From NCBI GenBank assembly GCA_001822075.1, contig MHPK01000002.1, positions 11,872-75,871 on the forward strand: a stretch of DNA of 64,000 bases, in the 5' to 3' direction. Below the pieces are notes generated by a model, which ran no database searches, was not told where the DNA came from, and saw only the letters and a program-made list of their open reading frames with translations. Below are positions 27,633 to 44,149 of this stretch, piece after piece. The DNA comes from Candidatus Staskawiczbacteria bacterium RIFOXYB1_FULL_38_37 (GTDB lineage: Bacteria; Patescibacteriota; Minisyncoccia; Minisyncoccales; Staskawiczbacteraceae). The translations under genes and the position numbers were made by a program. Each line of letters opens with the position of its first letter. Positions within the stretch are counted from its first letter, which is position 1.

Positions 27633-27649
27633 TAAATAAAACCAAAAAT

Positions 27650-27898
27650 ATGACAGAAGATATAAAACCTGATAAAATATATACTCCCAAAGAAACTAGA
27701 GATTTTTTAAAGGTTTCAGAAAGCACCATGAAGAGGATGATCAAAAACGGCATTATAAAAGCTTATAAAGTAAGCGGGCAATACAGGATTTGGGGAAATG
27801 AAATTTTACGTCTGATTTCGCCGAGTTTTGATAAAAGTTTCTACAAGGTCTATAAAAAGATAAAAAATAAAACTAAGGAAACCATTAAAAAATGGTAG
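27650..27898 (+). CDS. Small excisionase/MerR-type helix-turn-helix protein
   Basis: 82 aa. YTPKETRDFLKVSESTMKRMIKNGIIKAYKVSGQYRI. Confidence 0.6.
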   Translation: MTEDIKPDKIYTPKETRDFLKVSESTMKRMIKNGIIKAYKVSGQYRIWGNEILRLISPSFDKSFYKVYKKIKNKTKETIKKW

Positions 27899-27923
27899 CT
27901 TTGTTTTGTTTATAATTCAGAAT

Positions 27924-28894: not shown

Positions 28895-30019
28895 ATGAAA
28901 AAAATTCCTTACAGCCATCAATGGATAGATAATAAAGATATTAAAGAAGTGGTTAAAGTTTTAAAATCTGACTGGCTGACTCAAGGCCCAAAAGTTGAAG
29001 AATTTGAAAAAGCGATTGCAAAATATTGTAATGCAAAATATGGAGTGGCGTTTTCTTCTGGCACTTCGGCTCTTTATGCAGCTTATAAAACAGCTGGAAT
29101 TAAAGAAGGAGACGAGGTTGTTACGACACCCCTTACATTTGTTGCTACCAGCAACATGATATCTGTTTTGGGCGCTAAGCCGGTTTTTGTTGATGTTGAA
29201 CAAGATACTCTTAATATCAATCCCGAACTTATCGAGAGGTTAATTACTTCCCGCACAAAAGCAATAGCTACAGTTGATTTCGCCGGAGTTTCTTGTGATT
29301 ACGATAAAATTTTAAAAATTGCCAAAAAAAACAAATTATTGCTGATAGAAGATGCTTGTCATGCTTTGGGGACCGAATATAAAGGCAGAAAACTGGGCAG
29401 TTTTGCAGATATTGCAATTGTTACTTTCCATCCGGTAAAACATATTACGACAGGAGAGGGCGGAGTGGCTTTAACTAATAATAAAAATTTTTACGAAAAA
29501 CTTAAAATTGTTAGAAACCACGGTATTATAAAAAAACCAGAAAAAGGGGGATGGTACTATGAGGTAAAAGAACCCTCTTTCAATTTTAGAATTACAGACA
29601 TTCAGTGCGCCTTAGGAATTAGCCAGCTAAAAAAAATAGACAGATTTTTGAAAAGAAGAAGAGAAATTATAGCTAAATATAATAAGGCCTTTAAGGACGT
29701 AAAAGAAATTATATTGCCAACAGAAAAGAATTATCTAAAAACTGCCCGGTATATATATCCAATTCAGGTAAAAAAACAAAACAGAAAAAAAGTATTTAGT
29801 AATTTACAAGAACAAGGAATCGGTATTCAGATCCATTATATGCCCTTGCATCTGCATCCTTTTTATAAAAAAAGATTTGAATATAAAAAAGGAGATTTTC
29901 CTATAGCTGAAGAATATTATGAAAGAGCAATAACTATACCTCTTTTTCCCAAAATGACAAACAGGGAAGTAGATTATGTAATAAAATCAGTAAAGAAAGC
30001 AGTTGGAAATGACCGATAA
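28895..30019 (+). CDS. pseC: DegT/DnrJ/EryC1-family PLP aminotransferase, PseC-like
   Basis: IPYSHQWIDNKDIKEVVKVLKSDWLTQGPKVEEFE N-terminus. PLP-lysine context FHPVKHITTGEGG. Confidence 0.7.
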   Translation: MKKIPYSHQWIDNKDIKEVVKVLKSDWLTQGPKVEEFEKAIAKYCNAKYGVAFSSGTSALYAAYKTAGIKEGDEVVTTPLTFVATSNMISVLGAKPVFVDVEQDTLNINPELIERLITSRTKAIATVDFAGVSCDYDKILKIAKKNKLLLIEDACHALGTEYKGRKLGSFADIAIVTFHPVKHITTGEGGVALTNNKNFYEKLKIVRNHGIIKKPEKGGWYYEVKEPSFNFRITDIQCALGISQLKKIDRFLKRRREIIAKYNKAFKDVKEIILPTEKNYLKTARYIYPIQVKKQNRKKVFSNLQEQGIGIQIHYMPLHLHPFYKKRFEYKKGDFPIAEEYYERAITIPLFPKMTNREVDYVIKSVKKAVGNDR

Positions 30020-31085
30020 AATTATTTTTAAAAAAGAAAACGGAAAAGAATTTTGGGGCTATTGGCAGAACTATGTTTTAGAAAATAAAATAAGCCCAAA
30101 ATACCTTAAGACATATATAGAACCGCTTATTGCAGTTTCAAAAAATAATTCTTTATTGAAATCAGATGAAAGCTTTGTCTATTTAGAAAATAATAAAGTT
30201 GCAGCTTGTGTTTTTTTGCCCGTTGAGAAAGAAAATAAAGACAGTGATATAAAAAGCATAAAAATAGAATGTGACGGGGATTTTATTTTAGCCCCTTTGT
30301 GCAAAAACAAAAATATTGAAAAAAAAGTTTTTAATCTGATAGACGATATTGCTAAAAAAAACGTTGTCTCGAAAATAATGTTTCATATAGACCCATTAGA
30401 AAGAGAAAAGCGCTCCTTTAATTATCTGCAAAAATATAATTATTTGGCCAGTTCAATTCTAGTTTATTTCATTGATACTAGAAAAGGGAAAGACCTGTTG
30501 GCCTTGTGTAGGGAGGGCTGCAGAAAACTGATAAGGCCCCTTTTAAAAAACAACGATTTTTCAATTTTTTACATAGATAAAGAAAATTCAGATTATAATA
30601 TACATAAATTATATGAAAAGTTGCATCATAAGTGCGCCGGCCGTGTAACTAGGCCCCAGTGGACTTTTGACAACCAATTTGAGGAACTAAGGCAAGGTCA
30701 TGCTGTATTATTCGGTTTAAGATATAGAAATAAAGAGGTTGCTTTCTGTTATTTTTCTTATAACGCGAATAAAGCTGTTTATTCTTCTGGAGCCGATGAC
30801 CCCGAATACGATAAACTGCCTCTTTATCATTTGTTAATATATTATGCAATGAAATATTTTCAGGAAAGAGGCATAGATTTTATAGATGTCGGACAGCCAT
30901 CCAGTCCCTCAAACCAATTTTTTTATTATCCAGACGAAAAGCAATTAAAGATAGCCTTGTTTAAAAGGGGATTTTGCGGAGAATACGCAGAGGATTTAAG
31001 AGGCATTAAATATTTTTTAAAGGATGTTTTTGAAAAAGACATAAAAGATTTTGTAAAAAACTATAAAAATTCAATTCAAGAATAA
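30003..31085 (+). CDS. FemAB/GNAT-fold acyl- or aminoacyl-transferase-like protein
   Basis: 360 aa. The C-terminal half VLFGLRYRNKEVAFCYFSYNANKAVYSSGADD...LYHLLIYYAMKYFQERGIDFIDVGQ resembles the FemAB-family pattern. Weak call. Confidence 0.35.
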   Translation: MEMTDKIIFKKENGKEFWGYWQNYVLENKISPKYLKTYIEPLIAVSKNNSLLKSDESFVYLENNKVAACVFLPVEKENKDSDIKSIKIECDGDFILAPLCKNKNIEKKVFNLIDDIAKKNVVSKIMFHIDPLEREKRSFNYLQKYNYLASSILVYFIDTRKGKDLLALCREGCRKLIRPLLKNNDFSIFYIDKENSDYNIHKLYEKLHHKCAGRVTRPQWTFDNQFEELRQGHAVLFGLRYRNKEVAFCYFSYNANKAVYSSGADDPEYDKLPLYHLLIYYAMKYFQERGIDFIDVGQPSSPSNQFFYYPDEKQLKIALFKRGFCGEYAEDLRGIKYFLKDVFEKDIKDFVKNYKNSIQE

Positions 31086-31087
31086 CC

Positions 31088-32407
31088 ATGAAAAAAAGCA
31101 AAAAAGGGATTGCTTTGTGGAAAAAAGCAAAAAAGATAATTCCGGGCGGAACCCAGCTTTTATCAAAAAGGTCAGAATTATATTTGCCTGAACAGTGGCC
31201 TTCGTACTTTAAAAAAGCTAAAGGCTGCGAAGTCTGGGATTTAGACGGAAATAAATATATTGATATGTATTCTATGGGAATTGGCAGTTGTATTTTAGGA
31301 TATGCTGACCCTGATGTGAATAAAGCAGTAAAAAAAGTAATTGATGAGGGGTCAATGTGCACATTAAATTCCCCTGAAGAAGTTGAATTAGCAGAGTTAC
31401 TTTTAAAAATTCATCCCTGGGCAAAGGAAGTGAGATATGCCAGGACAGGCGGAGAGGCAATGGCCCAGGCCGTAAGAATTGCAAGGGCTAAAAGCCAAAA
31501 AGATAAAGTGGCACTTTGCGGTTATCACGGTTGGCACGACTGGTATCTATCTTCTAATCTGGCCGATGATAAAAATTTAGACGGCCATTTAATTAAGGGA
31601 TTAGAGCCAAGAGGAGTGCCAAGAGGGTTAAAAGGCACAGCTATACCATTTTATTACAACAAGATACAAGAGCTAGAGAGAATCGTTAAGGATAATAAAG
31701 ATATCGGAGTTATTGTTTTAGAGCCTTTAAGGCACCAGGAGCCAAAAGATAATTTTTTACAAAAAGTTAGAAAAATTGCAGATGATATAAATGCTGTTTT
31801 GATTTTTGACGAAGTAAGCTCTGGATTCAGGTTTAATATCGGAGGAGTTCATTTAAAATACAAGGTTTATCCGGATATAGCCGTTTTTGCTAAAGGTATG
31901 AGCAACGGATTCCCCATGGCAGCTATAATCGGCAAAAAAAATGTGATGGAATCAGCTCAAGACACTTTTATTTCAAGCACTTATTGGACAGAGAGAACGG
32001 GACCTATGGCAGCTTTGGCTACGATAAAAAAAATGATAAAAAATAAAATCCCTGGAAAACTTGAAAGCACAGGAAAATATTTAATAAAAAATTTAAAACA
32101 GATTGCAGAAAGAAATAGCATAAAAATGGAAATAATTGGAAAACCAGCTTTAATGCATTTTTCTTTTCAGTATGGCGCTAAAAATCGCGCCATTGAAACC
32201 CTTTTTACCCAGGAGATGTTAATGCGCGGCGTTATTGCTTCTTCTGGAATTTATGTTTCATACGCTTTTAAAAGAGAGCATATTAATAAATACTTAAAAG
32301 CGGTTGACGAAGTCTTTTCAATTTTGAGAAAGGCAATTGAAGAAAATAAAATTAAAAAATTATTGAGAGGTCCTGTTGCCCAGTCGGGATTTCAAAGATT
32401 AACATGA
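31088..32407 (+). CDS. Class III PLP aminotransferase (glutamate-1-semialdehyde 2,1-aminomutase-like)
   Basis: IPGGTQLLSKR...GCEVWDLDGNKYID, DEVSSGFR, AKGMSNGFPMAA. Confidence 0.75.
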   Translation: MKKSKKGIALWKKAKKIIPGGTQLLSKRSELYLPEQWPSYFKKAKGCEVWDLDGNKYIDMYSMGIGSCILGYADPDVNKAVKKVIDEGSMCTLNSPEEVELAELLLKIHPWAKEVRYARTGGEAMAQAVRIARAKSQKDKVALCGYHGWHDWYLSSNLADDKNLDGHLIKGLEPRGVPRGLKGTAIPFYYNKIQELERIVKDNKDIGVIVLEPLRHQEPKDNFLQKVRKIADDINAVLIFDEVSSGFRFNIGGVHLKYKVYPDIAVFAKGMSNGFPMAAIIGKKNVMESAQDTFISSTYWTERTGPMAALATIKKMIKNKIPGKLESTGKYLIKNLKQIAERNSIKMEIIGKPALMHFSFQYGAKNRAIETLFTQEMLMRGVIASSGIYVSYAFKREHINKYLKAVDEVFSILRKAIEENKIKKLLRGPVAQSGFQRLT

Positions 32408-32946
32408 TAACTTTCGGCAATATTAAAAAAGAGCATTTGCCTTTTTTAAAAAAATGGAGAAATGAACAAAAGGATATTTTAAGGCAGACAAAGTTGCTCA
32501 CAGATAAAGATCAGGCAGAGTGGTTTAAAAAGATTAAAAGGGACAAAAATCAAAAACTTTTTGCTGTTTATGAAGGCAAAAAATTTATAGGGTATTGCGG
32601 ATTGGTTTATATTGATTTTCGCCACAAAAGAGCAGAAATTTCTTTATTAACAGAGACAAAAAGGGCAAAAAATAAAGAGACTTACGGGGAAGATTTTATA
32701 TCTGCTTTTAAGATGCTTTGTCGCTATGCTTTTGAAAACTTAAAACTTAATAAAATTTATACAGACACTATTGATTTTAGAAAAGAAAATATAAGAATAC
32801 TTGAAAAACTCGGCTTTAAAAAAGAAGCTATATTAAAAAAACACTATTTTAAAAAAGGAATATATTACGACTCAATTATCCAATCTCTATTTTTAAAAGA
32901 TTGGAAAAAGATTAATCATGGCTTTCAAAAAAAGGATAAAAATTAA
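32404..32946 (+). CDS. GNAT N-acetyltransferase, PseH-like
   Basis: 180 aa. LPFLKKWRNEQ and the later GNAT core. It sits between the aminotransferases and the NeuB-family synthase. Confidence 0.55.
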   Translation: MITFGNIKKEHLPFLKKWRNEQKDILRQTKLLTDKDQAEWFKKIKRDKNQKLFAVYEGKKFIGYCGLVYIDFRHKRAEISLLTETKRAKNKETYGEDFISAFKMLCRYAFENLKLNKIYTDTIDFRKENIRILEKLGFKKEAILKKHYFKKGIYYDSIIQSLFLKDWKKINHGFQKKDKN

Positions 32947-33967
32947 AAACAGATGGATTGGCGGAGAAAATGACCCCTGCTTTATTATTGCTGAAGTCGG
33001 GTCAAATCATAACAGAAACTTTAAGCTGGCGAAAAAAATGATTGATACGGCTAAAGAAGCCGGAGCCGATGCTGTTAAATTCCAAACTTATTCAGCCGAG
33101 GCCCTTTACCAAAAACAGAAAAAGCCCCTAAAAGAAATAGGAGACAAAGAAAAACCTTTTGATATTATTAAAAAAATAGAACTGCCACGGAAGTGGCAAA
33201 AAACATTGTCTGAATATGCTGCTAAAAAGGGATTGTTTTTTCTTTCAACGCCCTTTGACAAGCAAGCTGTAGATGAACTTAATGAGTTTGTGCCGGCTTT
33301 TAAATGGGCTTCTCCTGAACTGATAGATAAGCCTCTTTTAGAATATGCCGCCAAAAAAAGAAAGCCAATGATAATTTCCACTGGTTTTTACGGGGCAAAA
33401 GAGGTAAAAAACGCTTTGAAATGGATTAAAAAAAATAAAAACAGCCAAGTTGTTCTGCTTCAATGCACAGGACTGTATCCGACCGAGCTCGAAGAAGTAA
33501 ATTTAAAAGCTATGGTAGAAATGAAAAAATTATTTAATTTGCCGGTTGGGTTTTCAGATCATACGCAAAGCGCGGTGGTGTCTGCCGCCGCTGCGGCCAT
33601 GGGGGCTAAAATAATAGAAAAGCATTTTACTTTGAACAAGAAAATGAAAGGGCCAGACCATGCTTTTGCCTCAGAACCAGAAGAATTGAAAAAGATGGTT
33701 AAAAATATAAGGGATGTTGAAAAAAGCTTGGGTATTGGCATAAAAAAACCAGCAGAAAGAGAAATAGAGAAAGAAAAACTAATCAGAAGAGGAGTGGTGG
33801 CGATTCGGAAAATAAGCAAAGGAGATAAAATTTCTTTAATCGGCATTACGACAAAAAGAACAGGGAAAGGAGCTGTTTTGCCAACTGATATGTATAAAAT
33901 TATCGGCAAGAAAACTAAGAGAGATATTAAAGTCGATCAAAAGATTGCTCCAGAAGATATTTTATGA
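32918..33967 (+). CDS. pseI: Nonulosonic acid synthase (NeuB family; pseudaminic acid synthase by context)
   Basis: CFIIAEVGSNHNRNFKLAKKMIDTAKEAGADAVKFQTY, with a C-terminal SAF-like domain. Confidence 0.8.
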   Translation: MAFKKRIKIKNRWIGGENDPCFIIAEVGSNHNRNFKLAKKMIDTAKEAGADAVKFQTYSAEALYQKQKKPLKEIGDKEKPFDIIKKIELPRKWQKTLSEYAAKKGLFFLSTPFDKQAVDELNEFVPAFKWASPELIDKPLLEYAAKKRKPMIISTGFYGAKEVKNALKWIKKNKNSQVVLLQCTGLYPTELEEVNLKAMVEMKKLFNLPVGFSDHTQSAVVSAAAAAMGAKIIEKHFTLNKKMKGPDHAFASEPEELKKMVKNIRDVEKSLGIGIKKPAEREIEKEKLIRRGVVAIRKISKGDKISLIGITTKRTGKGAVLPTDMYKIIGKKTKRDIKVDQKIAPEDIL

Positions 33968-34329
33968 ATTTTGATATCAATAAGTTATTTGTTGGAATTG
34001 ATTTAGTTGAAGTTGACCGTTTTAAGGACATCGAAAAACAAAAAAAGTTTATCGATAATATTTTTAGCAAAAGGGAAATTAATGACTGCAGGGGGAAAAA
34101 CAGTTTTGAAGAAAGCTTAGCGGGCCGCTTTGCGGGCAAAGAGGCAGTGAAAAAAACTGTTGAGGAAAGCATTAAATTTAATGAAATAGAAATAATCAAT
34201 AATAAGAACGGCGTTCCCCGAGTGAATTTTTTAAACAAAAAAATGAGTGAAAAATATAAATCAATAATCAGTATTTCCCATTTAAAATCAATTGCCCAGG
34301 CAATATGCATAACATATAAAAAAACATGA
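33964..34329 (+). CDS. acpS: Holo-ACP synthase (4'-phosphopantetheinyl transferase)
   Basis: VGIDLVEVDRF, FSKREI, LAGRFAGKEAVKK, ISISH. Confidence 0.8.
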   Translation: MNFDINKLFVGIDLVEVDRFKDIEKQKKFIDNIFSKREINDCRGKNSFEESLAGRFAGKEAVKKTVEESIKFNEIEIINNKNGVPRVNFLNKKMSEKYKSIISISHLKSIAQAICITYKKT

Positions 34330-34580
34330 ATAATATGAATAACCAAATTAGAGAAGACCTCCAAAAAATATTTTTAAAGACATTCCAGAATTTGAAAGAG
34401 AATGATTTTGATTTTCAGAAACCTAGAATTGATTTTGAGAACTGGGATTCTTTAACCCATATGCAGCTAGTTTCAGAGCTGGAAAGTTTTTTTAAAATTA
34501 GCTTTGAGATGGATGAAATAGTTGATATTAATAAGCCCGAGGATTTGGCAGTTTTAATTGAGAAAAAGAAAAATGCCTAA
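34326..34580 (+). CDS. Acyl carrier protein
   Basis: 84 aa. The DSLTHMQLVSELE motif includes the phosphopantetheine-attachment Ser. Confidence 0.7.
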   Translation: MNNMNNQIREDLQKIFLKTFQNLKENDFDFQKPRIDFENWDSLTHMQLVSELESFFKISFEMDEIVDINKPEDLAVLIEKKKNA

Positions 34581-36045
34581 TAACTATTCATTTAAAATAA
34601 TACCAGATTTTTTAAATAATTCTGTCCGTAATTTTCCTGATAAAATCGGCTTGGTTTTTGAAGAAAGGGAATACAGCTATAAGAAAATAAAAGAAAAAGC
34701 AAACAGTATAGCTAGTTATATTGTTAAAAAAACTAAAAAAGGAGATATAGTTGCCCTATTTTTAGAAAATAGGCCGGAGATAATTTTTAGCTATTTCGGG
34801 ATATTGTCTGCCGGCCGAATTGTTTTGTTAATTCCAGCCAATATTTCAGACGATAACTTCTTGTTTCAAATTAAAAAAACAAACCCAAAACTGATAATAT
34901 CCCAAAAAAAATTTGAACAGAAGCTCAAAAGAACAGGTATTTTAAAAGAATATTTTTATACTGACATAGACGAAATCCCGCAGAGCAGTTTTTTTGCAGG
35001 AGAAGATGTTTCAGGGAACGATGTTTCTACTATCATTTTTACTTCAGGCACGATGGCCGAGCCCAAAGGAGTAGTTTTGAGGCATTGCAACGTTATTTCA
35101 GCGACCAAAAATATAACAGAGTTTTTAAAATGGAGTAAATATGACATCGATGTTAATATTTTATCTCTTTCGCATTCATTCGGATTAGGAAATATCCATT
35201 GTGTTCTCGCGGCAGGAGCCACGGTTATACTTTTTCGCGACGCGATAAATATCAAAAAGATTATTCAGACCATTATTGAAAAGAAAGCCACAACATTTGC
35301 TGCTGTCCCCGCTATCCTACGTTTTGTTGTTGATAATTATTTTGAAGAATTTAAAAAGTGCGGCGAATTTTTAAGATTTGTCCAAACAGACACTTCTTTA
35401 ATGGATAAAGAATTAATTGAAAAAGTTTTATCGGCCTTGCCCAATACTGATTTTAATTATTATTACGGTTTAACGGAAGCTTCCAGGTCAACCTTTTTTT
35501 CAATAAATAAGCACTTAGATAAAATAAACAGCATTGGAAAAGCTTTGTTTAATGTAGAAATAAAAGTCGTCGATGAATATGGCAAGGATTTGCCAGCGGG
35601 CAAAGCAGGAGAGATATGCATTAAAGGGGGACATGTTATCAAAGAGTATTGGAGATGTCCTGAAGCATCAAAAAATATAAAAGATGGCTGGCTAAAAACC
35701 GGAGACGTTGGTTTTATTGATAAGGATGGATATTTATATTTCAAATCCAGAAAAGATGATGTTATAAATGTGTCTGGAGAAAAAGTATCTCCGGAAGAAA
35801 TTGAAGAAGTTGTCAGAAAAATGCCAGGAGTCAAAGATGTTGCAGCTGTTGGCGCGAAGGACAGATTATTGGGGGAGGCGGTGAAGTTATTTATTGTTCC
35901 GGATGCTTCAGATTTTGACGTCCAGAGCGTAGTCCAAGAATGTAAAAAGAAACTGGAAAGCTATAAAGTTCCTAAATTAATAGAAGTTATTGAAAAAATT
36001 CCGCGTACCGAAAATGGCAAGGTGCGCCGCAATATATTAAAGTAG
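34558..36045 (+). CDS. AMP-dependent synthetase/ligase (adenylate-forming, probable acyl-ACP ligase)
   Basis: IIFTSGTMAEPKGV, YGLTEA, and a C-terminal lysine region PRTENGKVRR. Confidence 0.85.
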   Translation: MRKRKMPNNYSFKIIPDFLNNSVRNFPDKIGLVFEEREYSYKKIKEKANSIASYIVKKTKKGDIVALFLENRPEIIFSYFGILSAGRIVLLIPANISDDNFLFQIKKTNPKLIISQKKFEQKLKRTGILKEYFYTDIDEIPQSSFFAGEDVSGNDVSTIIFTSGTMAEPKGVVLRHCNVISATKNITEFLKWSKYDIDVNILSLSHSFGLGNIHCVLAAGATVILFRDAINIKKIIQTIIEKKATTFAAVPAILRFVVDNYFEEFKKCGEFLRFVQTDTSLMDKELIEKVLSALPNTDFNYYYGLTEASRSTFFSINKHLDKINSIGKALFNVEIKVVDEYGKDLPAGKAGEICIKGGHVIKEYWRCPEASKNIKDGWLKTGDVGFIDKDGYLYFKSRKDDVINVSGEKVSPEEIEEVVRKMPGVKDVAAVGAKDRLLGEAVKLFIVPDASDFDVQSVVQECKKKLESYKVPKLIEVIEKIPRTENGKVRRNILK

Positions 36046-36053
36046 TTTTTAAT

Positions 36054-37100
36054 ATGGACAGTAAAATTCTACCGTTTTTACAAAAAATATATTTTCCAGC
36101 AAGCATTTTTTTGGGTAAGCAGAGTTTTATGTTTTTAAAAGCCATTCAGCATGAAAGAAAATTGATTATTATCCCAAAGTCTTTAAAAGATGATAATAAA
36201 GAGTTGTTAATTAGTTTATTTGGAGATGAATTTGAGTATTTTTTCCAGGATAGAGAGCCTCAAATTGAGGATTTTAATAAATTAAAAGAACACTGCCAAA
36301 AAAATAATTACGACTATCTGATAGCTGTAGGCGGCGGATCAGTTATAGACTCAGTCAAAATGGTTAAAAAAGAATTAAATATAAAAATGGTTGCGTTTCC
36401 AACTGCCGTGGGTTCTGGAGCCGAAGTCAGCCAGTACGTCCTTTTAATAGACAACGGAGTAAAAAAAGTTTTTTCTTCTCCGGAATTCTTGCCAGAAATA
36501 ATTATACTAAATACTTCTTTTTTAAATTCATTAACAAAAGAACAGATTATTTTTCAATCAATTGATGCCTTGTCTCATGGATTAGAAAGCTTGGCTTCTA
36601 AAGCGTCAAATCACTTTTCAGACATATTGGCATTAGATTCAATAGAAATTATTTATAGGAACTTAAATAAATTGAATGAAAAAGGAAATAAAGAAGAAAT
36701 TTTGGAAGAATTGCAAATAGCCAGCATTTTATCCGGATTGGCCCAGAGCAGCGCTGCCACCGGTTTGTGTCACGCTCTCGCGCATTATTTTGGGGTAAAG
36801 AATAATATAAGCCACTCAAAAGCAGTTGCTGTTTTCTTGACAGATGTCTTGGATTTGAATTATAAACATACAGACAAATACAGGAAAATAGGGCGGTTAA
36901 AAAGTTTGTCTTCAGATAATTTTATTAAAAATATTCAGGAATTATTTAGTAAATTAGAAATAAAATTAGAAAAAATTAATGTTTTGTCAGAAGATATAAT
37001 AAAAGCAGCTGAGGAGATTAAAAAAGATATTTGCAGCCTTACAAACCCTTATTCTCCGAGCTTGGAAGAGATTATTGAAATCATTAAAAAACACCAATGA
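36054..37100 (+). CDS. Iron-containing (group III) alcohol dehydrogenase family protein
   Basis: AVGGGSVIDSVKMV and CHALAHYFG (HxxxH). Confidence 0.7.
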   Translation: MDSKILPFLQKIYFPASIFLGKQSFMFLKAIQHERKLIIIPKSLKDDNKELLISLFGDEFEYFFQDREPQIEDFNKLKEHCQKNNYDYLIAVGGGSVIDSVKMVKKELNIKMVAFPTAVGSGAEVSQYVLLIDNGVKKVFSSPEFLPEIIILNTSFLNSLTKEQIIFQSIDALSHGLESLASKASNHFSDILALDSIEIIYRNLNKLNEKGNKEEILEELQIASILSGLAQSSAATGLCHALAHYFGVKNNISHSKAVAVFLTDVLDLNYKHTDKYRKIGRLKSLSSDNFIKNIQELFSKLEIKLEKINVLSEDIIKAAEEIKKDICSLTNPYSPSLEEIIEIIKKHQ

Positions 37101-38197
37101 CAGCTTATTCGTCCATTTTAGAAAAAGAGCCTTTTTCTGCAGTCCAATCAAAAAAGGGAAAACTTCTTTTAACAGAAATTAAAAAGTCAGTTTTGCATCA
37201 CTACAAAAACTGCCCTGAATTTAAGGCGCTTTTAGATAATAGAGATTTTAATGTCCAAAAAGATTTTAACTTAGAGGATTTTCCATATTTTCCAGCTTCA
37301 ATTTTTAAAAAATTTGACTTGCTTTCTGTTCCAAAAGGCCAAATTATAAAAACCCTTTATTCAAGCTCTACTTCAGGGCAACCAAGCAAAATAATGATTG
37401 ACAAAATTACTTCAGATAACCAGATATTGGCCCTCAATAAAATAATGATGAATTTTTTAGGAAAACAGAGAAGGCATTTCATTATTTTTGATACAGAAGA
37501 AACGATAGAAAGCAGCCAGGGAGAACTATCTTCAAGAGGCACAGCAATCAGGGGCATGCTCTCACTTGCAAGAAAGATATCTTTCGTTCTTGATAAAGAT
37601 TTGAATTTGAATGCCGAAAAATTAAAAGTTGCCCTTTTTGGCAAAGAAGAAAATGAAAAAGTCTGTTTCTTCGGTTTCAGCTGGCTGTTTTATAATGTTT
37701 ATTTAAAAAACAAAGAAAATAAAGAGGTTTTTAATTTTTTTAAGAAAACATCAAGCAGAGACAATATTATTTTACATATTGGCGGCTGGAAAAAACTTAG
37801 AGATATAAACGTTTCTAAAGAAGATTTCAACAATAATTTAGAAGAAATGTTTTTTATAGATAAAGGAAAAATTACCGATGTTTATGGCATGACAGAACAG
37901 CTTGGGACTGTTTATCCTGATTGCGAATATGGTTACAAACACATGCCCTTATACTCAGAGATAATTATAAGAGATACGAACACTTTAAAGCCTTTGCCGC
38001 CGAGGCAAGTAGGTTTTATCCAATTTTTAAGCCCCTTGCCCCATAGTTATCCCGGCATATCTGTGCTTTCCGACGACCTGGGAAAAATTATTGGGATTGA
38101 TGATTGTAAATGTGGCCGCATGGGCAAGTATTTTGTTTTCGAAAAAAGGTCAGAAAAGGCAGAAATGAAAGGGTGCGGAGATGCATTAAATATTTAA
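37097..38197 (+). CDS. LuxE-like acyl-protein synthetase
   Basis: 366 aa. YSSSTSGQPSKI phosphate-loop-like motif, and pairing with a LuxC-like gene downstream. Pattern recall only. Confidence 0.45.
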   Translation: MTAYSSILEKEPFSAVQSKKGKLLLTEIKKSVLHHYKNCPEFKALLDNRDFNVQKDFNLEDFPYFPASIFKKFDLLSVPKGQIIKTLYSSSTSGQPSKIMIDKITSDNQILALNKIMMNFLGKQRRHFIIFDTEETIESSQGELSSRGTAIRGMLSLARKISFVLDKDLNLNAEKLKVALFGKEENEKVCFFGFSWLFYNVYLKNKENKEVFNFFKKTSSRDNIILHIGGWKKLRDINVSKEDFNNNLEEMFFIDKGKITDVYGMTEQLGTVYPDCEYGYKHMPLYSEIIIRDTNTLKPLPPRQVGFIQFLSPLPHSYPGISVLSDDLGKIIGIDDCKCGRMGKYFVFEKRSEKAEMKGCGDALNI

Positions 38198-38210
38198 AAA
38201 ATAGACCGGT

Positions 38211-39491
38211 ATGGAAAAAACAATTATTTTTAATGGACAAAAGACAAAAGAATCTAATTTTGATTTTGATGTAATTATAAAAAACTTGAAGTCAAGGTTA
38301 GATTATATGCACGACTTGTCAGAAGACGATATAATTGATTTTTTTGACAAGCTGGTTGATTATTGGCAAGAATCGGGCCTGTTAAAGAAACATAGTTATT
38401 TAAAGAATCTTTCAGAGTTTTTTGATAAAGGCAATTTTTCAGAAAAATTAAATATTGCTTTGCATAATAACTATAAAGCCCTAGATGGATTTGTTGATTT
38501 AGGAGATAAAGGCCTGCTTTTTCATGCTCAGCCGAGGGGTTTGACTTGCCATTGGTTAGCTGGCAATGTTCCGGTTCTCGGCTTGTTTTCAATTTTCTTT
38601 TGCCTGGCAACAAAAAATGTTTGCTTAGTTAAAGCTCCTCTCAGGGGTTTTGAAGAATTAACTGGTTTGCTTGAAACTCTTAACGAAGTGAAAACAGAAA
38701 AAATAGACGGCAGGGACTTTTCTAAATCTATAGCTGTTTTATTAATTGAAAACAATGATAAGGAGAGCCATGAGAAGCTTTCTGCTATAGCTGATGTAAG
38801 AATAGCTTGGGGAGGTCTTGATGCCGTAAACGCAATTATTGGCTTGAAAAAAAATCTATTTTGCGAGGATATTATTTTTGGGCCAAAATATTCCTATGTT
38901 TTAATTGATAAGGAATCGTTAGAAAAAAATCAAAAAAATTTAGTTCAAAGATTAGCAGTAGATGTTTCTGTTTTTGACCAGTACGCCTGTTCTTCTCCCC
39001 ACACAGTTTTCATTCAGGAAGCCGAGCCGGGACAGGCTGAAAATTTTGCTAAAGAGTTAGCTTCGCAATTAGAGCTGGTAAATAGGGTTTTGCTTCCTAA
39101 AATTGAAAAAGACCCGGCAAAATCCGCAGAGATAATTAGCATGAGAGCAGAATATGAATTAAAGGGAAAGGTTTTCAATTCTCCTGGCACTGAATGGACT
39201 GTAATTTATACAAAGGAGTCGGGTCTGGCTAAGGGCTGCGGCTCTCGGGTTATTTTTGTAAAACCTATTAAAGATTTAAAAAGTATTAGAGATTATAATA
39301 ATCGCCAGAAACAGACACTGGGAACGGGATTGACGCAAGAGAACAAATTAAAATATCTTGATTCAATCACTCAGAAAGGAATTGATAGGTGTCCGAATCT
39401 TGGATACATGACATTTTATGAATCACCCTGGGATGGGATGTTTGTTCTGGACAGATTGATTCGCTGGGTGACCACGCACAAAGATATTTAA
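38211..39491 (+). CDS. LuxC-like acyl-CoA/acyl-ACP reductase
   Basis: 426 aa. HWLAGNVPVLGLFS and the size fit the LuxC family. Pattern recall only. Confidence 0.45.
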   Translation: MEKTIIFNGQKTKESNFDFDVIIKNLKSRLDYMHDLSEDDIIDFFDKLVDYWQESGLLKKHSYLKNLSEFFDKGNFSEKLNIALHNNYKALDGFVDLGDKGLLFHAQPRGLTCHWLAGNVPVLGLFSIFFCLATKNVCLVKAPLRGFEELTGLLETLNEVKTEKIDGRDFSKSIAVLLIENNDKESHEKLSAIADVRIAWGGLDAVNAIIGLKKNLFCEDIIFGPKYSYVLIDKESLEKNQKNLVQRLAVDVSVFDQYACSSPHTVFIQEAEPGQAENFAKELASQLELVNRVLLPKIEKDPAKSAEIISMRAEYELKGKVFNSPGTEWTVIYTKESGLAKGCGSRVIFVKPIKDLKSIRDYNNRQKQTLGTGLTQENKLKYLDSITQKGIDRCPNLGYMTFYESPWDGMFVLDRLIRWVTTHKDI

Positions 39492-39503
39492 TAGTTTAAT
39501 TTC

Positions 39504-40244
39504 ATGGAAAAAAATATTCAAAAACATTCGTCAGCTATTTGCGGAGAAAATTTTCAGCACGAATACAATGTGGTTATATACGAAAACGTCAGAATAGGAG
39601 ATAACGTATTTTTAGGCAACAACGTTATTATCTACCCCGACACTGTTATTGGCGATAATGCAGTTGTTTTTGACAATGCTGTTTTGGGAAGGATTCCCAT
39701 GCTTGGCCCAGCCAGCCTTTCTTCTGTTGATTCGTCGTTATGCCCCTTAGTTTTGGGTTCTAATGTTATTATTGGCACTTCTGCTGTTGTTTATCGCGGG
39801 ACAAAGATAGGCGATTATTCGTATATAGCCGATATCGTTCATATAAGAGAAAGTTGCCATATCGGCAGCTATTGTTCTGTCGGCAAATGTACCTCATTAG
39901 AGCCAAAAGTCATTATGGAAGACAGGGCAAAAATAGCTGCCTGTTCCCAGATAGCTGCTTTAACAGAGCTTAAAAAAGGGTGTTTTGTCGGCGCAGATGT
40001 TTCTATTTGCACTGATACATCGTTCGGTAGAATAAAAAATGCAGATAAAAAAGTGATTATAGAAAAAGGAGCGATGATAGGCAGCAATGCTTCTATCGGC
40101 CCAGGAGTAACAATAGGCAGGAATGCAATGGTTGCTTTGGGCGCAGTGGTATTGAGAAATGTGCCAGAGAATAAAGTTGCTTTCGGAAATCCAGCTAAGA
40201 TAATGTGGGACGTTGATAAAAAATTACAACAAAAAAATGTTTAA
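39504..40244 (+). CDS. Left-handed beta-helix (hexapeptide-repeat) acyltransferase
   Basis: Repeated [LIV]G-x4 hexapeptides: VRIGDNVFLGNNVIIYPDTVIGDNAVVFDNAVLG. Confidence 0.75.
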   Translation: MEKNIQKHSSAICGENFQHEYNVVIYENVRIGDNVFLGNNVIIYPDTVIGDNAVVFDNAVLGRIPMLGPASLSSVDSSLCPLVLGSNVIIGTSAVVYRGTKIGDYSYIADIVHIRESCHIGSYCSVGKCTSLEPKVIMEDRAKIAACSQIAALTELKKGCFVGADVSICTDTSFGRIKNADKKVIIEKGAMIGSNASIGPGVTIGRNAMVALGAVVLRNVPENKVAFGNPAKIMWDVDKKLQQKNV

Positions 40245-40253: not shown

Positions 40254-41375
40254 ATGAAATATTGTAAAAAATGCGTTCAGCCAAATACCAGGCCAGGAAT
40301 TGTTTTTGATAAAAAAGGAGTTTGTATGGCCTGCCGTTTAGCTGAACAGCATAACAGAATTGATTGGCCAAAAAGGAGAAAAGAGCTTGAAGAAATCGCT
40401 GATTTTGGCAGGAAAAACAATGTTTCGGGGTATGATTGCATAGTTGGAGTGAGCGGAGGAAAAGATAGCACCCGCCAGTCGATTTATGTAAGAGACGAGC
40501 TTGGCTTAAAGCCATTGCTTGTTTCCTGCAATTATCCGCCGGAACAGTTGACAGAAAGGGGAGCTCACAATTTATCAAATCTTGTATCTTTGGGTTTTGA
40601 CTGCATCCAGATTGCTCCGGATCCAAAAGTTTGGAAAAAATTAATGCTTCAAGGGTTTTTAAAATATGGAAATTGGTGCAAATCAACAGAAATGGCTCTT
40701 TATGCTTCAGCTCCAAAAATTGCAATTGCTTACCACATCCCTCTGGTTTTTTTGGGGGAGAGCGAAATGATGGCTTTTGGGGTTGCTGATTCTGGCGACG
40801 GGGGAGACGCTAACAAAATGAAATACGGCCATACCTTACAAGGAGGCGACCCAAAGACGAACAAACTTATTACAAAAGAAATAAAAGATCAAGACCTTTT
40901 TTGGTACCGCTATCCTTCAGACGAAGAAATGGCTTGGGGCAAATTAAAAGTTGTTTTTTTGGGTTATTATATAAAAGATTTTACAAGATTTAAAAATGCG
41001 GAGTTTGCCATAAAGCGAGGACTTGAAATCCGCAACGACTCGCCCGAAGACATCGGGGATTTCTACGGATTCTCAGCCTTAGACGACGACCACGTAATAG
41101 TAAACCAAATGTTAAAATATTTGAAGTTTGGATTTGGCCAAGTTACAGATCAAACATGCGAAGCCATACGGCTTGGGATGATGACAAGAAAAAAAGCCAT
41201 AGAACTTGTTAAAAAATATGACGGTAGATGCGCAGACAGGTTTATAGAAGGTTTTTGCAGATACCTCGGCATTAATAAAAAAAATTTTTGGAGGGTTGCT
41301 GAATTTTACCGCAACAAAGATATTTTTAAGAAAGATGCTAAAGGAAATTTTAAAATTAAAATTCCTATTGAATAG
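40254..41375 (+). CDS. N-acetyl sugar amidotransferase (WbpG/PseA/WbuX family), copy 1
   Basis: MKYCKKCVQPNTRPGIVFDKKGVCMACR zinc-ribbon start, PP-loop-like VGVSGGKDS, and adjacent hisH/hisF paralogues. Confidence 0.75.
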   Translation: MKYCKKCVQPNTRPGIVFDKKGVCMACRLAEQHNRIDWPKRRKELEEIADFGRKNNVSGYDCIVGVSGGKDSTRQSIYVRDELGLKPLLVSCNYPPEQLTERGAHNLSNLVSLGFDCIQIAPDPKVWKKLMLQGFLKYGNWCKSTEMALYASAPKIAIAYHIPLVFLGESEMMAFGVADSGDGGDANKMKYGHTLQGGDPKTNKLITKEIKDQDLFWYRYPSDEEMAWGKLKVVFLGYYIKDFTRFKNAEFAIKRGLEIRNDSPEDIGDFYGFSALDDDHVIVNQMLKYLKFGFGQVTDQTCEAIRLGMMTRKKAIELVKKYDGRCADRFIEGFCRYLGINKKNFWRVAEFYRNKDIFKKDAKGNFKIKIPIE

Positions 41376-41380
41376 AAGTT

Positions 41381-42013
41381 ATGAAAAACAAAATTCTTAT
41401 TATTGATTACGGAGTGGGAAACGATCAGTCGGTTATAAACGTAATTGATTTTTTAGGTTATGATTTTTTGGTTTCCAACAAAAAAGAAGATATTTTAAAA
41501 TCATCAGCCTACATTCTCCCCGGCGTAGGAGCTTTCAATGAAGCAATGAAAAACCTTAACAGTCTTGGAATTACAGAATTATTAAAAAAACAGGTTTTGT
41601 CAAATAAAAAACCCATATTCGGAATCTGCCTTGGCTTTCAGGTGCTGGCTGATTATTCAGAAGAAAACGGATTTCATGAAGGGTTGGGTTTCATTAAGGG
41701 CGGGGTTGTCAAATTAGAGGCAAAAAGGGGTTTAAGGGTTCCTCATGTTGGTTGGAATACACTAAAGATTATAAAAAAAGACCCTTTATTCTCAAACATA
41801 GACAAAGAGCCGAGTTTTTATTTTGACCATAGCTATCATTTAAGATGCGATAATTCTTATATTTCAGCAGAATGTTTTTACGGAAGAGACATAGCGGTAG
41901 CCGTGCAAAAAGATAATATATTCGGCGTCCAGTTTCATCCTGAAAAAAGCCAGAATAACGGACTAAAATTATTCAGGTCATTTTTTAATTATTTAAACGT
42001 TAAGCATGCTTAA
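41381..42013 (+). CDS. hisH: Imidazole-glycerol-phosphate-synthase-like glutaminase subunit (HisH paralogue of LPS clusters)
   Basis: GICLGFQVL (nucleophile Cys), HVGWN, FHPEKS. Confidence 0.85.
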   Translation: MKNKILIIDYGVGNDQSVINVIDFLGYDFLVSNKKEDILKSSAYILPGVGAFNEAMKNLNSLGITELLKKQVLSNKKPIFGICLGFQVLADYSEENGFHEGLGFIKGGVVKLEAKRGLRVPHVGWNTLKIIKKDPLFSNIDKEPSFYFDHSYHLRCDNSYISAECFYGRDIAVAVQKDNIFGVQFHPEKSQNNGLKLFRSFFNYLNVKHA

Positions 42014-42878
42014 AAAAAGGATTGTGGCGTCTTTAACAGTTAAAAACGGGATGGTTGTCCAAAGCATCGGATTTAATAAGTATTTGCCCATCGGCAGAGT
42101 TGATATTTCTGTTGAGTTTCTAAACAAGTGGGGAATAGATGAAATTGTTCTGCTTGACATTGATGCGACAAATCAGAACAGAAATCCTAATTTTAACATG
42201 GTTACTGAAGCTTCCAAAAAAAGTTTCGTTCCGCTAACTGTGGGCGGCGGAATTAAAAATTTAGAAGACATTAGAAAGCTTATTCATTTTGGAGCAGACA
42301 AAATTTCAATAAATAAAGTTGCTTTAACCAGCCCCAAAATTATAAAAGAGGCTTCAGAGGTTTTTGGAAACCAGTGCATAGTTGTTTCAATTGATGTTAG
42401 AAAAAATAAAAATCGTTATGAGGTTTATTCAGACAACGGTAAAAATCCCACCGGGTTGAATCCTGTGAAATGGGCGAAAGAAGCAGAAAAATTAGGAGCA
42501 GGAGAAATACTTTTAAATTCGATAGACAGAGATGGGTTAAAGCTTGGTTATGATTTAAGCATAATCAAGAGAGTAGCTAATTCCGTTTCTATTCCCGTTA
42601 TCTGCGCTGGAGGCGCGGGGCATCCGAAACATTTTTTAAAAGTCTTTATGAAAACAAAGGCAATGGCAGCCGCCGCCGGAAATTTTTTCCATTTTACAGA
42701 ACACAGTCCGATAGTTGTTAAATCTTATCTTTTGAAAAATGGAGCAGACGCAAGGCTGGATACTTACGCTGATTATAAAGGAATAAATTTTATTGAAGAA
42801 TCCGGCAGAATATCAAAAAGACAGGACAATTATTTAGACAGGATTAGATTTGAATATATATTAGATGAGATTATATAG
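42006..42878 (+). CDS. hisF: Imidazole-glycerol-phosphate-synthase-like cyclase subunit (HisF paralogue)
   Basis: DIDAT, TVGGGIKN, GADKISIN, GAGEILLNSIDRDG. Confidence 0.85.
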   Translation: MLKKRIVASLTVKNGMVVQSIGFNKYLPIGRVDISVEFLNKWGIDEIVLLDIDATNQNRNPNFNMVTEASKKSFVPLTVGGGIKNLEDIRKLIHFGADKISINKVALTSPKIIKEASEVFGNQCIVVSIDVRKNKNRYEVYSDNGKNPTGLNPVKWAKEAEKLGAGEILLNSIDRDGLKLGYDLSIIKRVANSVSIPVICAGGAGHPKHFLKVFMKTKAMAAAAGNFFHFTEHSPIVVKSYLLKNGADARLDTYADYKGINFIEESGRISKRQDNYLDRIRFEYILDEII

Positions 42879-42892: not shown

Positions 42893-44149
42893 ATGCGATA
42901 TTGTAAAAGATGTTTATATCCTGAAAATCATCCTCTTGGCATAGTTTTTGATGACCAGGGAGTTTGTTCTGGATGCAGAATCCACGATGAAAAAGATATT
43001 ATTGATTGGAAAGAAAGAGGTAAAAAATTGAGAGAAATACTTAATAAATTCAGGAATAAAGACAATAAAAATTATGACTGCATAATTCCGGTCAGCGGGG
43101 CCAGGGATTCATATTTTATAGTCCACATTATAAAAAATGTTTATAAGATGCACCCCTTGCTCGTTTCATATAATAAGCAATATAACACCAAAAGAGGAAT
43201 AAGAAATTTGGCATATTTAAGGACGATTTTCGGTTGCGATTTCAATATGCTTACGGTTTCTCCTATCACAGTTAAAAAAATAACCCGCTATACCGTTAAA
43301 AAGCTGGCGAGCATTTATTGGCATTGTTTGGCCGGCCAGACAGTATTTCCTGTCCAAATAGCGGTGCGGCTTAAAATCCCTTTGATTATCTGGGGCGTTC
43401 ATCAGGGGTGCGACCAAGTAGGAATGTTTTCTCATTTAGACGAAGTAGAGATGACAAGAAAATACAGAAAAAACCACGACCTTATGGGTTTTGAGGCGGA
43501 AGACTTAATAGATGGAAAAGAAGGCATAACAGAGAATGATGTTCAGGCCTTTAAGTATCCGCACGACAAAGAAATTGAGAAAGTGGGAGTCAGAGGCATT
43601 TATCTGGGCAATTATATCCGCTGGGATTCAAAAAAACAGCACGAGCTGATGATTAAATTATATGGTTACGAGACGGCAGAGCAGCGCAGAACATTTGATG
43701 CTTATAACGACGTTGACTGCTTTAATTATTCAGACCTGCATGACTACATAAAATTTTTAAAGTGGGGGTATGGAAAAGTTACAGACCAAGCCTCAAGAGA
43801 AATACGGTTAAAAAAATTAACCAGGCAAGAGGGCGTAGAATTAGTAAAAAAATATCAAAACATTTTACCGTCAGAAAAGAGCCTAAAACTTTTTTTAGAT
43901 TGGCTGGGAATGGCTGAAAAAGATTTTTTCAAATATATTGATGAAAAAAGAGACCCAAGAATATGGAAAAAAGAAAAGGGAAAATGGAAACTTTTAGATT
44001 CAATAATAGACCATGTTAATGACCAAGGAGTTGACAAAGGCCTTAAGAAAAAAGAAAATTGTAAATTTATTATAACGTCTGCCAGAGGCCTAAAATCAAA
44101 AGAAGATAAATATGTTTTAATAGGCAGGGGCTGGTCAGATAAAAATTAA
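42893..44149 (+). CDS. N-acetyl sugar amidotransferase (WbpG/PseA/WbuX family), copy 2
   Basis: MRYCKRCLYPENHPLGIVFDDQGVCSGCRIH, IIPVSGARDS. Paralogue of 40254-41375. Confidence 0.75.
   Translation: MRYCKRCLYPENHPLGIVFDDQGVCSGCRIHDEKDIIDWKERGKKLREILNKFRNKDNKNYDCIIPVSGARDSYFIVHIIKNVYKMHPLLVSYNKQYNTKRGIRNLAYLRTIFGCDFNMLTVSPITVKKITRYTVKKLASIYWHCLAGQTVFPVQIAVRLKIPLIIWGVHQGCDQVGMFSHLDEVEMTRKYRKNHDLMGFEAEDLIDGKEGITENDVQAFKYPHDKEIEKVGVRGIYLGNYIRWDSKKQHELMIKLYGYETAEQRRTFDAYNDVDCFNYSDLHDYIKFLKWGYGKVTDQASREIRLKKLTRQEGVELVKKYQNILPSEKSLKLFLDWLGMAEKDFFKYIDEKRDPRIWKKEKGKWKLLDSIIDHVNDQGVDKGLKKKENCKFIITSARGLKSKEDKYVLIGRGWSDKN

Follow-up and report, generated by a model that had tools for sequence, protein, structure and literature searches.

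The genes rfbK-L-M-N-O (wbeK-O) of Vibrio cholerae were reportedly proposed by Morona and co-workers in 1995 (Gene 166:19) to encode a pathway for 3-deoxy-L-glycero-tetronate (2,4-dihydroxybutanoate). The O1 antigen of this organism is perosamine N-acylated with tetronate and requires wbeL (rfbL, VC0249), coding for a protein of 471 aa (PMC3441752). RfbL has been described as activating 2,4-dihydroxybutanoate onto coenzyme A (CoA) or RfbK (PMC12208996), and a LuxE domain is carried by RfbN (PMC4772473). We found no biochemical reconstitution of the V. cholerae tetronate pathway in the literature consulted, where it is still called 'putative'. Here we describe a seven-gene module at positions 33964-40244 of a 64,000-nucleotide stretch of contig MHPK01000002.1 (hereafter the window) from Candidatus Staskawiczbacteria bacterium RIFOXYB1_FULL_38_37. 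This groundwater bacterium belongs to a Parcubacteria/Patescibacteria lineage of the candidate phyla radiation (CPR), in agreement with the tiny genome ascribed to the host in a first-pass annotation made from the sequence alone. Proteins identical to ClpB, ComEC, NeuB, LuxE and LuxC of the window are recorded at NCBI for Candidatus Staskawiczbacteria. Judged by homology, the module is probably a self-priming acyl-donor cassette of the RfbK-L-M-N-O type, set in a pseudaminic-acid-type glycan operon and placing a short omega-hydroxyacyl group onto an amino sugar. It is a further example of the kind of system proposed in 1995, neither unprecedented nor a new type.

The open reading frames (ORFs) of the window were compared with Pfam and NCBIfam profiles. 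All seven genes of the module lie on the forward strand at exactly the coordinates given by the first-pass annotation, and its family assignments were upheld throughout. The first gene encodes an AcpS-type 4'-phosphopantetheinyl transferase (33964-34329, 121 aa; PF01648, 2.9e-13; TIGR00556, 66.5 bits at a cutoff of 45.35), with the motifs GID and KEAxxK in the segments GIDLVEV (Asp13) and FAGKEAVKK (Glu60, Lys64). It is followed by a dedicated acyl carrier protein (ACP; 34326-34580, 84 aa) with its phosphopantetheine site at Ser42 in the segment ENWDSLTHM. With 20.4 bits the ACP falls just short of the PF00550 gathering score of 20.8, and we retain the assignment because the motif WDS(L/F)xH around this site is kept across 35 aligned orthologues. 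Next come an adenylate-forming ligase of the ANL superfamily (34558-36045; PF00501, 5.9e-66; PF13193, 3.3e-15) and a group III iron-dependent alcohol dehydrogenase (Fe-ADH; 36054-37100, 348 aa; PF25137, 2.9e-32; PF00465, 5.6e-19). A LuxE-type acyl-protein synthetase (37097-38197, 366 aa), a LuxC-type acyl-thioester reductase (38211-39491, 426 aa) and a left-handed beta-helix (hexapeptide) N-acyltransferase (39504-40244, 246 aa; PF00132, 4.5e-31) complete the module. The profile comparison of LuxE and LuxC had been chosen beforehand as the point at which this annotation could fail, and it gave strong matches for both (PF04443, 2.3e-66; PF05893, 1.3e-70). The motifs quoted in the annotation, namely WDSL with Ser42, TSGTMAEPKG, GGGSVID and HALAH, were all seen in the translations.

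The genes are arranged in an operon-like manner. Four-nucleotide overlaps were found at the AcpS/ACP and Fe-ADH/LuxE junctions as well as upstream, where the stop of a NeuB-family gene overlaps AcpS. ACP and ligase overlap by 8 nt or 23 nt, depending on whether the ligase starts at ATG 34573 (490 aa) or at TTG 34558 (495 aa). The ATG appears to be the more likely start, since a homologue of 490 aa (P0328) is 99% identical. At all other junctions the genes are 8-13 nt apart, so that the description of the genes as mostly overlapping was right for the junctions named and slightly generous for the module as a whole. A promoter and terminator scan of the window, which is largely uninformative in such AT-rich DNA, showed no terminator-like site between the module genes; the best promoter-like sites lie at 27576-27906, in the only sizeable gap upstream of the module. 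The arrangement is not due to chance, as more than 20 loci, bacterial and archaeal, contain the same block.

The correspondence with V. cholerae was reached by an indirect route. A scan of genome contigs with the LuxC alignment, using back-translated patterns that were too strict, did not reach Vibrio but yielded a fused LuxE-LuxC protein from Magnetococcales. When the protein database was queried with this fusion, a cluster named 'acyl protein synthase/acyl-CoA reductase RfbN [Vibrio cholerae]' was found among the LuxE-LuxC fusions, which led to the V. cholerae locus (L063). The gene order there is ManC, ManB, Gmd, PerA, a glycosyltransferase, Wzm, Wzt, ACP (77 aa), ligase (471 aa), Fe-ADH (374 aa), a LuxE-LuxC fusion (825 aa), a hexapeptide transferase (188 aa), an insertion sequence and RfbT. 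ACP, ANL ligase, Fe-ADH, LuxE and LuxC are thus homologous and in the same order in both organisms, with a beta-helix acyltransferase next in line, and both sets are placed in a surface-glycan cluster beside a sugar aminotransferase. The ACP, ligase and LuxE motifs and the catalytic cysteine of LuxC are also common to both. The two loci differ in that LuxE and LuxC are fused as RfbN in V. cholerae and separate in the window, in that AcpS is encoded only in the window cassette, and in their sugar genes, which are PseB, PseC and NeuB in the window and those for GDP-perosamine in V. cholerae; no ManC/ManB/Gmd/PerA set was found in profile scans of the window. The transferases belong to different beta-helix families (QdtC-like with 246 aa in the window, RfbO with 188 aa in V. 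cholerae), residues in the pocket region of the ligase differ between the window protein and RfbL, so that the acid may differ as well, and the host is a CPR bacterium rather than a Vibrio.

In pairwise BLASTP comparisons the window ACP is 33% identical to RfbK (2e-8), and an unusual motif, E/D-x-W-D-S-(L/F)-x-H, is common to both and to 33 other loci. The ligase, which contains the motifs A3, A5, A7, A8 and A10 (Lys488) including TSGTMAEPKG, shows 29% identity to RfbL along its entire length (2e-54). Two subtypes of this ligase can be told apart. The window protein and RfbL carry the signature 'LSHSFG ... YYGLTEAS-RS(T/S)F', in a looser form 'SHSF ... YGLTE(A/V)S-R(S/A)TF', whereas the ligases of the Clostridium and Asgard modules are of the other type (type 2), with 'PFYYCYG ... 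MYGQTEATARLSYLPP'. The Fe-ADH is 27% identical to RfbM (1e-34), and both are encoded between ligase and LuxE. Its GGGSVID motif spans residues 93-99, and Asp171, His175, His240 and His254 were read from the translation as candidate metal ligands; their spacing matches that of the metal ligands in FucO.

The LuxE and LuxC proteins align with the two halves of RfbN, LuxE with the N-terminal half (36% identity, 2.5e-74, about 235 bits) and LuxC with the C-terminal half (33% identity, 7e-75, about 239 bits). Their scores against the solved Lux proteins of Photobacterium (7xc6) are 77 and 85 bits, respectively, and they stay far below the NCBIfam equivalog models for LuxC (NF052251, 120 of the 750 bits needed) and LuxE (NF052244, 88 of 550 bits). 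On these scores the two proteins are clearly to be regarded as orthologues of RfbN rather than as mere members of a shared superfamily. In the alignment, Cys360 of LuxE (segment KGCGD) falls on the cysteine of a KGC found at the equivalent C-terminal place in Photobacterium LuxE (7xc6_E), where it is the acylated residue; the motif [KR]GCGD is invariant across 60 family members, RfbN included. Likewise, Cys260 of LuxC (FDQYACSSPH), invariant in 25 homologues, aligns with the cysteine of YDQQACFS in the solved LuxC (7xc6_A), presumably the catalytic one.

These similarities support the earlier idea of an ACP-dependent line in a nonulosonic-acid cluster, in which an acid is activated, interconverted between acid, aldehyde and alcohol, and transferred onto an amino sugar. 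In the order of reactions that we favour, AcpS would convert the dedicated apo-ACP to holo-ACP at Ser42. LuxE would adenylate one carboxyl group of a short polar di-acid, e.g. malate or succinate, take up the acyl group on Cys360 and pass it to Cys260 of LuxC, which would reduce it to the semialdehyde, presumably with NAD(P)H. The Fe-ADH would further reduce the semialdehyde to an omega-hydroxy acid, with 2,4-dihydroxybutanoate (tetronate) and 4-hydroxybutanoate as candidates. The RfbL-type ligase would then adenylate the other carboxyl group and form the thioester with holo-ACP, from which the QdtC-like transferase would move the hydroxyacyl group to a sugar amine, likeliest the C4 amine produced by PseB and PseC, which becomes N7. 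Malate would in this way yield a 2,4-dihydroxybutanoyl (tetronyl) and succinate a 4-hydroxybutanoyl group. A substrate with two carboxyl groups is proposed because the presence of two adenylating enzymes together with one carrier protein then makes sense. Omega-hydroxyacyl amides are found on bacterial amino sugars, with 4-hydroxybutanoyl on Fuc3N and Qui3N and tetronyl on perosamine. The product had been called not predictable in the first-pass annotation. This holds for the exact acid, while its class can be predicted as a short omega-hydroxyacyl group, since the module is syntenic and homologous to RfbK-L-M-N(-O) of V. cholerae. The same class-level prediction, a short omega-hydroxyacyl amide, would apply to many unannotated 'LuxC/LuxE' genes in glycan clusters, and the compact self-priming unit of seven genes should be directly expressible in E. 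coli.

The same set of enzymes could also form the same class of product in the reverse order, a less probable alternative that nevertheless deserves weight. Here the ligase would tether a dicarboxylic acid to holo-ACP, and LuxE, LuxC and Fe-ADH would then reduce the distal carboxyl group on the carrier, so that the tethering and not the selectivity of LuxE would fix the regiochemistry. Such an order agrees with the position of ACP and ligase ahead of the genes for Fe-ADH, LuxE and LuxC in the operon; a dedicated ACP is most sensible if several enzymes share a tethered intermediate; and several of the best solved relatives of the ligase activate dicarboxylates (oxalyl-CoA synthetase, MenE, malonyl-CoA synthetase). 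However, LuxE of the Lux system acts on free acids, and in V. cholerae it is the finished 2,4-dihydroxybutanoate that RfbL is described as activating (PMC12208996). Gene fusions argue in the same direction. LuxE-LuxC fusions of about 825 aa occur in hundreds of proteins, a LuxE-LuxC-SDR fusion with a short-chain dehydrogenase/reductase (SDR) domain (P0233, L065:7001-10249, 1082 aa) lies beside NeuB, NeuC and CMP-transferase genes, and a ligase-Fe-ADH fusion was found as well (P0371, L064:7001-9568, 855 aa). The three linkages (LuxE-LuxC, LuxC-SDR and ligase-Fe-ADH) connect enzymes of successive steps only if reduction of the free acid precedes its ligation, and together with the RfbL literature they are the reason why we prefer this order. 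Downstream of the LuxE-LuxC-SDR fusion follow split transketolase-like genes, an uncharacterised ORF and then genes for an ACP, a FabG-like SDR and a KASIII-like protein.

The resemblance to the bioluminescence system raises the further question of whether the module handles long-chain fatty acids in a Lux-like manner and yields a lipidated sugar ('liposugar'), a fatty aldehyde or a fatty alcohol. The Pfam families of the two central enzymes are indeed those of LuxC and LuxE, and compared with LuxCDE (7XC6) the self-acylation cysteine of the adenylating LuxE and the catalytic cysteine of LuxC are conserved, so the acid-to-aldehyde chemistry is presumably alike. Unlike LuxCDE, the window enzymes occur together with an ACP, another adenylating enzyme, an alcohol dehydrogenase and a sugar transferase, and no LuxD or LuxAB match appeared among the Pfam and NCBIfam results for the scanned window ORFs of at least 100 aa. 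The top NCBIfam match of the ligase is a long-chain fatty-acid CoA ligase subfamily, below its cutoff (321 vs 476 bits); its closest solved relatives are mixed, comprising a nonribosomal peptide synthetase adenylation domain, oxalyl-CoA synthetase, MenE, FadD13, 4CL and MatB. The transferase is weakly similar to LpxA/LpxD. Moreover, the flagellin glycosylation islands of Aeromonas group II and enterobacteria, known to us from their descriptions, contain a carrier protein, ligase, LuxE and LuxC between pse genes, and these ACP/FabG/ligase/LuxE/LuxC sets were read by their authors as fatty-acid synthesis (PMC7874193, PMC4875605). By description the islands differ from the window in having a FabG-like SDR in place of the Fe-ADH and no AcpS; together with the SDR fusion described above, this suggests that an SDR can replace Fe-ADH.

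Several observations nevertheless make a fatty-acid product very improbable. Profile scans of the window revealed neither a ketosynthase nor LuxD nor any further gene of a fatty-acid synthase, Patescibacteria reportedly lack fatty-acid biosynthesis (PMC12455944), the syntenic V. cholerae module is linked to a C4 hydroxy acid, and the Lux equivalog models are missed widely. With a monocarboxylic substrate, LuxE, LuxC and the alcohol dehydrogenase would furthermore destroy the very acyl group that ligase, ACP and transferase need. The first-pass annotation had named a link of homologous modules to lipid metabolism as a finding that would speak against it; the close homologues (at least 44% LuxC identity) lie in glycan or nonulosonic-acid clusters, not in lipid clusters. 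LuxC/LuxE genes of similar glycan clusters have at times been interpreted as genes for fatty-acid synthesis.

A number of points weigh against the assignment as a hydroxyacyl cassette of the RfbK-O type. The identity of the five proteins to their V. cholerae counterparts is modest (27-36%), and for ligase and Fe-ADH unrelated enzymes of solved structure reach values just as high. As identity alone does not discriminate here, the orthology of these two rests on synteny, motifs and co-inheritance. Downstream of the A4 motif the ligase reads GLGNIH in the window and AMARMR in RfbL, and because of this difference the acid is possibly not tetronate. No acid could be assigned from the ligase, as the A4-A5 region showed only that the window clade is unlike RfbL. 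Nor did the Fe-ADH give a substrate clue, since its NCBIfam and PDB matches are scattered (ErcA, AdhE, FucO, EutG, PsrA, 4-hydroxybutyrate dehydrogenase) and all far below cutoffs. The thaumarchaeal and Clostridium versions of the module lack Fe-ADH, so that the alcohol step is not universal. BLASTP detected no significant similarity between the window transferase and RfbO, and QdtC, FdtD and WlbB are N-acetyltransferases that act on C3 amines with acetyl-CoA. A PseH-like GNAT encoded at 32404-32946 could compete for the same amine. Finally, we know of no enzyme from such modules that has been reconstituted.

The best solved relatives of the transferase are QdtC (1.9e-18 over residues 22-238), an FdtD-like WxcM protein, WlbB and LpxA. 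It has the all-beta-helix architecture of the QdtC/WlbB/FdtD class, but it would acylate a sugar amine from a hydroxyacyl-ACP donor, in place of the acetyl-CoA that serves this class for the acylation of C3 amines. At 13 loci a homologue of this transferase is encoded beside the module, and genes for a GFO oxidoreductase and a DegT aminotransferase often accompany it. Our proposal is at its weakest where the acceptor is concerned. The most likely acceptor would be the C4 amine of the PseC product, a 4-amino-4,6-dideoxy sugar, and later N7 of the nonulosonic acid; we prefer it because PseB and PseC are encoded next to the module not only in the window but also at several other loci. An alternative acceptor, to which we now assign a lower rank, would be an amine made by the GFO oxidoreductase and the second DegT aminotransferase, following the logic of WbpB/WbpE/WbpD or GnnA/GnnB/LpxA. 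It would agree with the QdtC/WlbB-like nature of the transferase and with the GFO and DegT genes that flank the module in many loci. Against it, the matches of the GFO protein to solved and NCBIfam UDP-GlcNAc 3-dehydrogenases are weak, and the legionaminic-type clusters of Vibrio regularly include GFO.

Relatives of LuxC were counted among cluster representatives at 50% identity, which gave 2185 family members at E <= 1e-3 and 134 at E <= 1e-30. The closest come from CPR bacteria (Beckwithbacteria with 65% identity, Uhrbacteria, Woesebacteria) and from DPANN archaea and Thaumarchaeota (45-50%). Beckwithbacteria and Woesearchaeota have the block AcpS-ACP-ligase-Fe-ADH-LuxE-LuxC with its gene order unchanged, beside NeuB, CMP-transferase, DegT and PglD-like genes, and it is also present in Woesebacteria, Saccharibacteria, many DPANN archaea, two metagenome-assembled genomes (MAGs) labelled Gammaproteobacteria and one Chloroflexi MAG. 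Over about 50 loci the LuxC scores correlate with those of ligase, LuxE, Fe-ADH and ACP (Spearman rho 0.65-0.84), and this tracking indicates that the module is inherited as a unit. The five-part donor cassette known from V. cholerae is widespread and, in hosts ranging from Vibrio pathogens to CPR bacteria and archaea, repeatedly tied to sialic-acid-like sugars.

The tie to nonulosonic acids is not peculiar to uncultured lineages, because the module also sits in the legionaminic-acid (nab) clusters of cultured bacteria, namely of Vibrio vulnificus and the V. splendidus group (L066, L067). As in the window, ACP, ligase, Fe-ADH and LuxE/LuxC are encoded there beside NeuB, NeuC, a CMP-transferase, GFO and DegT. 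In contrast to the window, LuxE and LuxC are fused and AcpS is missing, and instead of a QdtC-like or other beta-helix transferase the next genes encode an uncharacterised protein of about 330-345 aa and a polysaccharide deacetylase (L066:12526-14546; L067:12878-14848), which hints at a route in which an acetyl group is removed and the amine then reacylated. In PMC7371886 we found no discussion of the module's presence in the nab clusters of Vibrionaceae. The V. vulnificus protein encoded after RfbN (L066:12526-13563) clusters in an all-against-all comparison with one CPR locus and others; the CPR member is presumably the Beckwithbacteria protein L001:4618-5667.

A different setting is seen in a distant Clostridium clade (about 30% identity), which has the type-2 ligase and neither Fe-ADH nor AcpS. 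In 22 Clostridia loci (L036-L062, e.g. L050:3258-19123) the quartet ACP-ligase-LuxE-LuxC is always followed by a sigma-54 activator and usually by genes resembling those of the phosphotransferase system (PTS). In C. tyrobutyricum RpiR, RpiA, GFO and a gene of the Ldh/Mdh family lie upstream of the module, and a protein of 138 aa encoded after the Clostridium LuxC is otherwise common only to the Asgard loci. The Clostridium quartet has a non-glycan role, with no obvious tie to lipid metabolism either. One might therefore ask whether the window cassette likewise produces a small free metabolite with no relation to the glycan and lies in a sugar operon only incidentally, as the RpiR, RpiA, Ldh/Mdh-family, sigma-54 and PTS-like neighbours of the Clostridium genes could suggest. 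We regard this as the least plausible of the explanations considered. The module overlaps NeuB on one side and runs unbroken into WbuX and HisH/HisF genes on the other, a homologue of the sugar N-acyltransferase accompanies it in the 13 loci mentioned, and every close relative with enough flanking DNA lies in a sugar cluster.

The presence of its own AcpS in a tiny genome had been singled out as striking. The gene is indeed there, but it is general to the clade of cassettes from CPR bacteria, DPANN archaea and Thaumarchaeota and is not a peculiarity of this genome. An AcpS homologue adjoins the module in 17 of the 18 complete loci of the closest clade, i.e. in all three complete CPR loci, in eight of nine from DPANN archaea, in all three from Thaumarchaeota, and in all three from the MAGs labelled Gammaproteobacteria or Chloroflexi. 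It was found in none of the loci from Asgard archaea (0/7), Magnetococcales (0/6), Clostridia (0/22) and Vibrio (0/3). Most archaea reportedly lack ACP and its processing enzymes (PMC3533463), and fatty-acid biosynthesis is reportedly absent from Patescibacteria (PMC12455944). With its own AcpS the cassette could work in hosts of either kind, and in such hosts a cassette equipped for its own priming would be expected; this would also give a plausible reason for the occurrence of ACP and AcpS in organisms without fatty-acid synthesis or ACP. More tentatively, and with some doubt, we consider that the AcpS-bearing cassette might act as an autonomous acyl-donor unit, spread horizontally even between bacteria and archaea, which equips cells of CPR bacteria, DPANN archaea and Thaumarchaeota, otherwise devoid of ACP and phosphopantetheinyl transferase, with carrier-protein chemistry and decorates nonulosonic acids with an N-acyl group new to them. 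If so, it would account for some of the scattered 'orphan' ACP and AcpS genes of archaea. The N-acyl group, e.g. 2,4-dihydroxybutanoyl or another omega-hydroxyacyl group, would be one so far undescribed on nonulosonic acids, and it could affect the surface contacts of episymbionts.

In the window, the module belongs to a series of sugar genes that run co-directionally. PseB (27906-28883, forward strand; TIGR03589, 485 bits at a cutoff of 407.75) and PseC (28895-30019, forward strand; TIGR03588, 474 bits at a cutoff of 423.5) are followed by a FemAB-family protein (30003-31085), a class III aminotransferase similar to glutamate-1-semialdehyde aminomutase (31088-32407) and the PseH-like GNAT, which reaches 61 bits at a PseH cutoff of 93. 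Immediately ahead of AcpS lies the gene for a nonulosonic acid synthase of the NeuB/PseI family (32918-33967, forward strand; PF03102, 6.2e-86), which scores just below the cutoffs of both NCBIfam models (NeuB, 367 bits; PseI, 307 bits). The cytidylyltransferases of the window match PseF weakly, and no clear PseG match was found among the scanned window proteins.

The class III aminotransferase opens one more possibility for the fate of the aldehyde formed by LuxC, namely transamination to an omega-aminoacyl group; alternatively, the aldehyde itself could be a reactive end product. Besides glutamate-1-semialdehyde aminomutase, the enzyme resembles two aminotransferases that act on aldehydes, GntE of guanitoxin and PigE of prodigiosin biosynthesis, and an aldehyde-directed pathway would suit the thaumarchaeal and Clostridium modules without Fe-ADH. 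We nevertheless judge such an outcome highly unlikely. The Fe-ADH gene lies within the module, is co-inherited with LuxC (rho 0.84) and is fused to the ligase in one relative, while the aminotransferase is present in only 2 of about 60 loci, one of them the Saccharibacteria locus L019, where it accompanies WbuX, HisH and HisF genes. Since it does not accompany the module at other loci, the aminotransferase was rejected as a module member. The Saccharibacteria homologue is very close (660 bits; L019:152-1537) and lies beside HisH, WbuX and HisF.

Immediately downstream of the module two paralogous N-acetyl-sugar amidotransferases of the WbuX type are encoded (40254-41375 and 42893-44149; about 330-340 bits each to TIGR03573), with HisH (41381-42013) and HisF (42006-42878) between them. 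WbuX and HisH/HisF form the usual set for the conversion of N-acetyl to N-acetimidoyl groups, and the duplication of WbuX suggests two acetamidino groups or two substrates. Farther downstream follow the second DegT aminotransferase, two cytidylyltransferases, the GFO oxidoreductase, a flippase, methyltransferases and glycosyltransferases. At 45405-47171 a fusion protein of 588 aa combines a BFO_1060/'surface carbohydrate biosynthesis' glycosyltransferase-like domain with a CMP-sugar cytidylyltransferase, and a second BFO_1060-like protein is encoded at 51130-52572. Unfused relatives of the N-terminal domain of the fusion adjoin the acyl module in Beckwithbacteria (L001:4618-5667). Among the glycosyltransferases, at 52578-56234, a double-domain S-adenosylmethionine-dependent methyltransferase (597 aa) and a TylF-type O-methyltransferase are encoded, suggesting that the glycan is also O-methylated.

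At the other end of the sugar cluster, the similarity of an ORF of 244 aa at 26402-27136 to nucleotide-sugar dehydrogenases is confined to their central part (model positions 97-277 of 413, 1.7e-10), and no Pfam family is matched; the ORF may be a truncated or degenerate gene. The first 2000 nucleotides of the window have a G+C content of 0.447, compared with 0.32-0.39 over most of the window, and contain overlapping ORFs on both strands at 470-1252; no tRNA or Rfam feature was detected in the window, and hence none that would explain this composition. Upstream of the sugar cluster three large putative surface proteins are encoded. One of 789 aa has three lamin-tail domains (13443-15812), and for one of 1135 aa (19248-22655) a weak, sub-threshold match to a peptidoglycan-binding domain is the only one. 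The gene for the third, an O-antigen-ligase (Wzy_C) protein of 867 aa with C-terminal tetratricopeptide repeats, lies on the opposite strand at 22755-25358.

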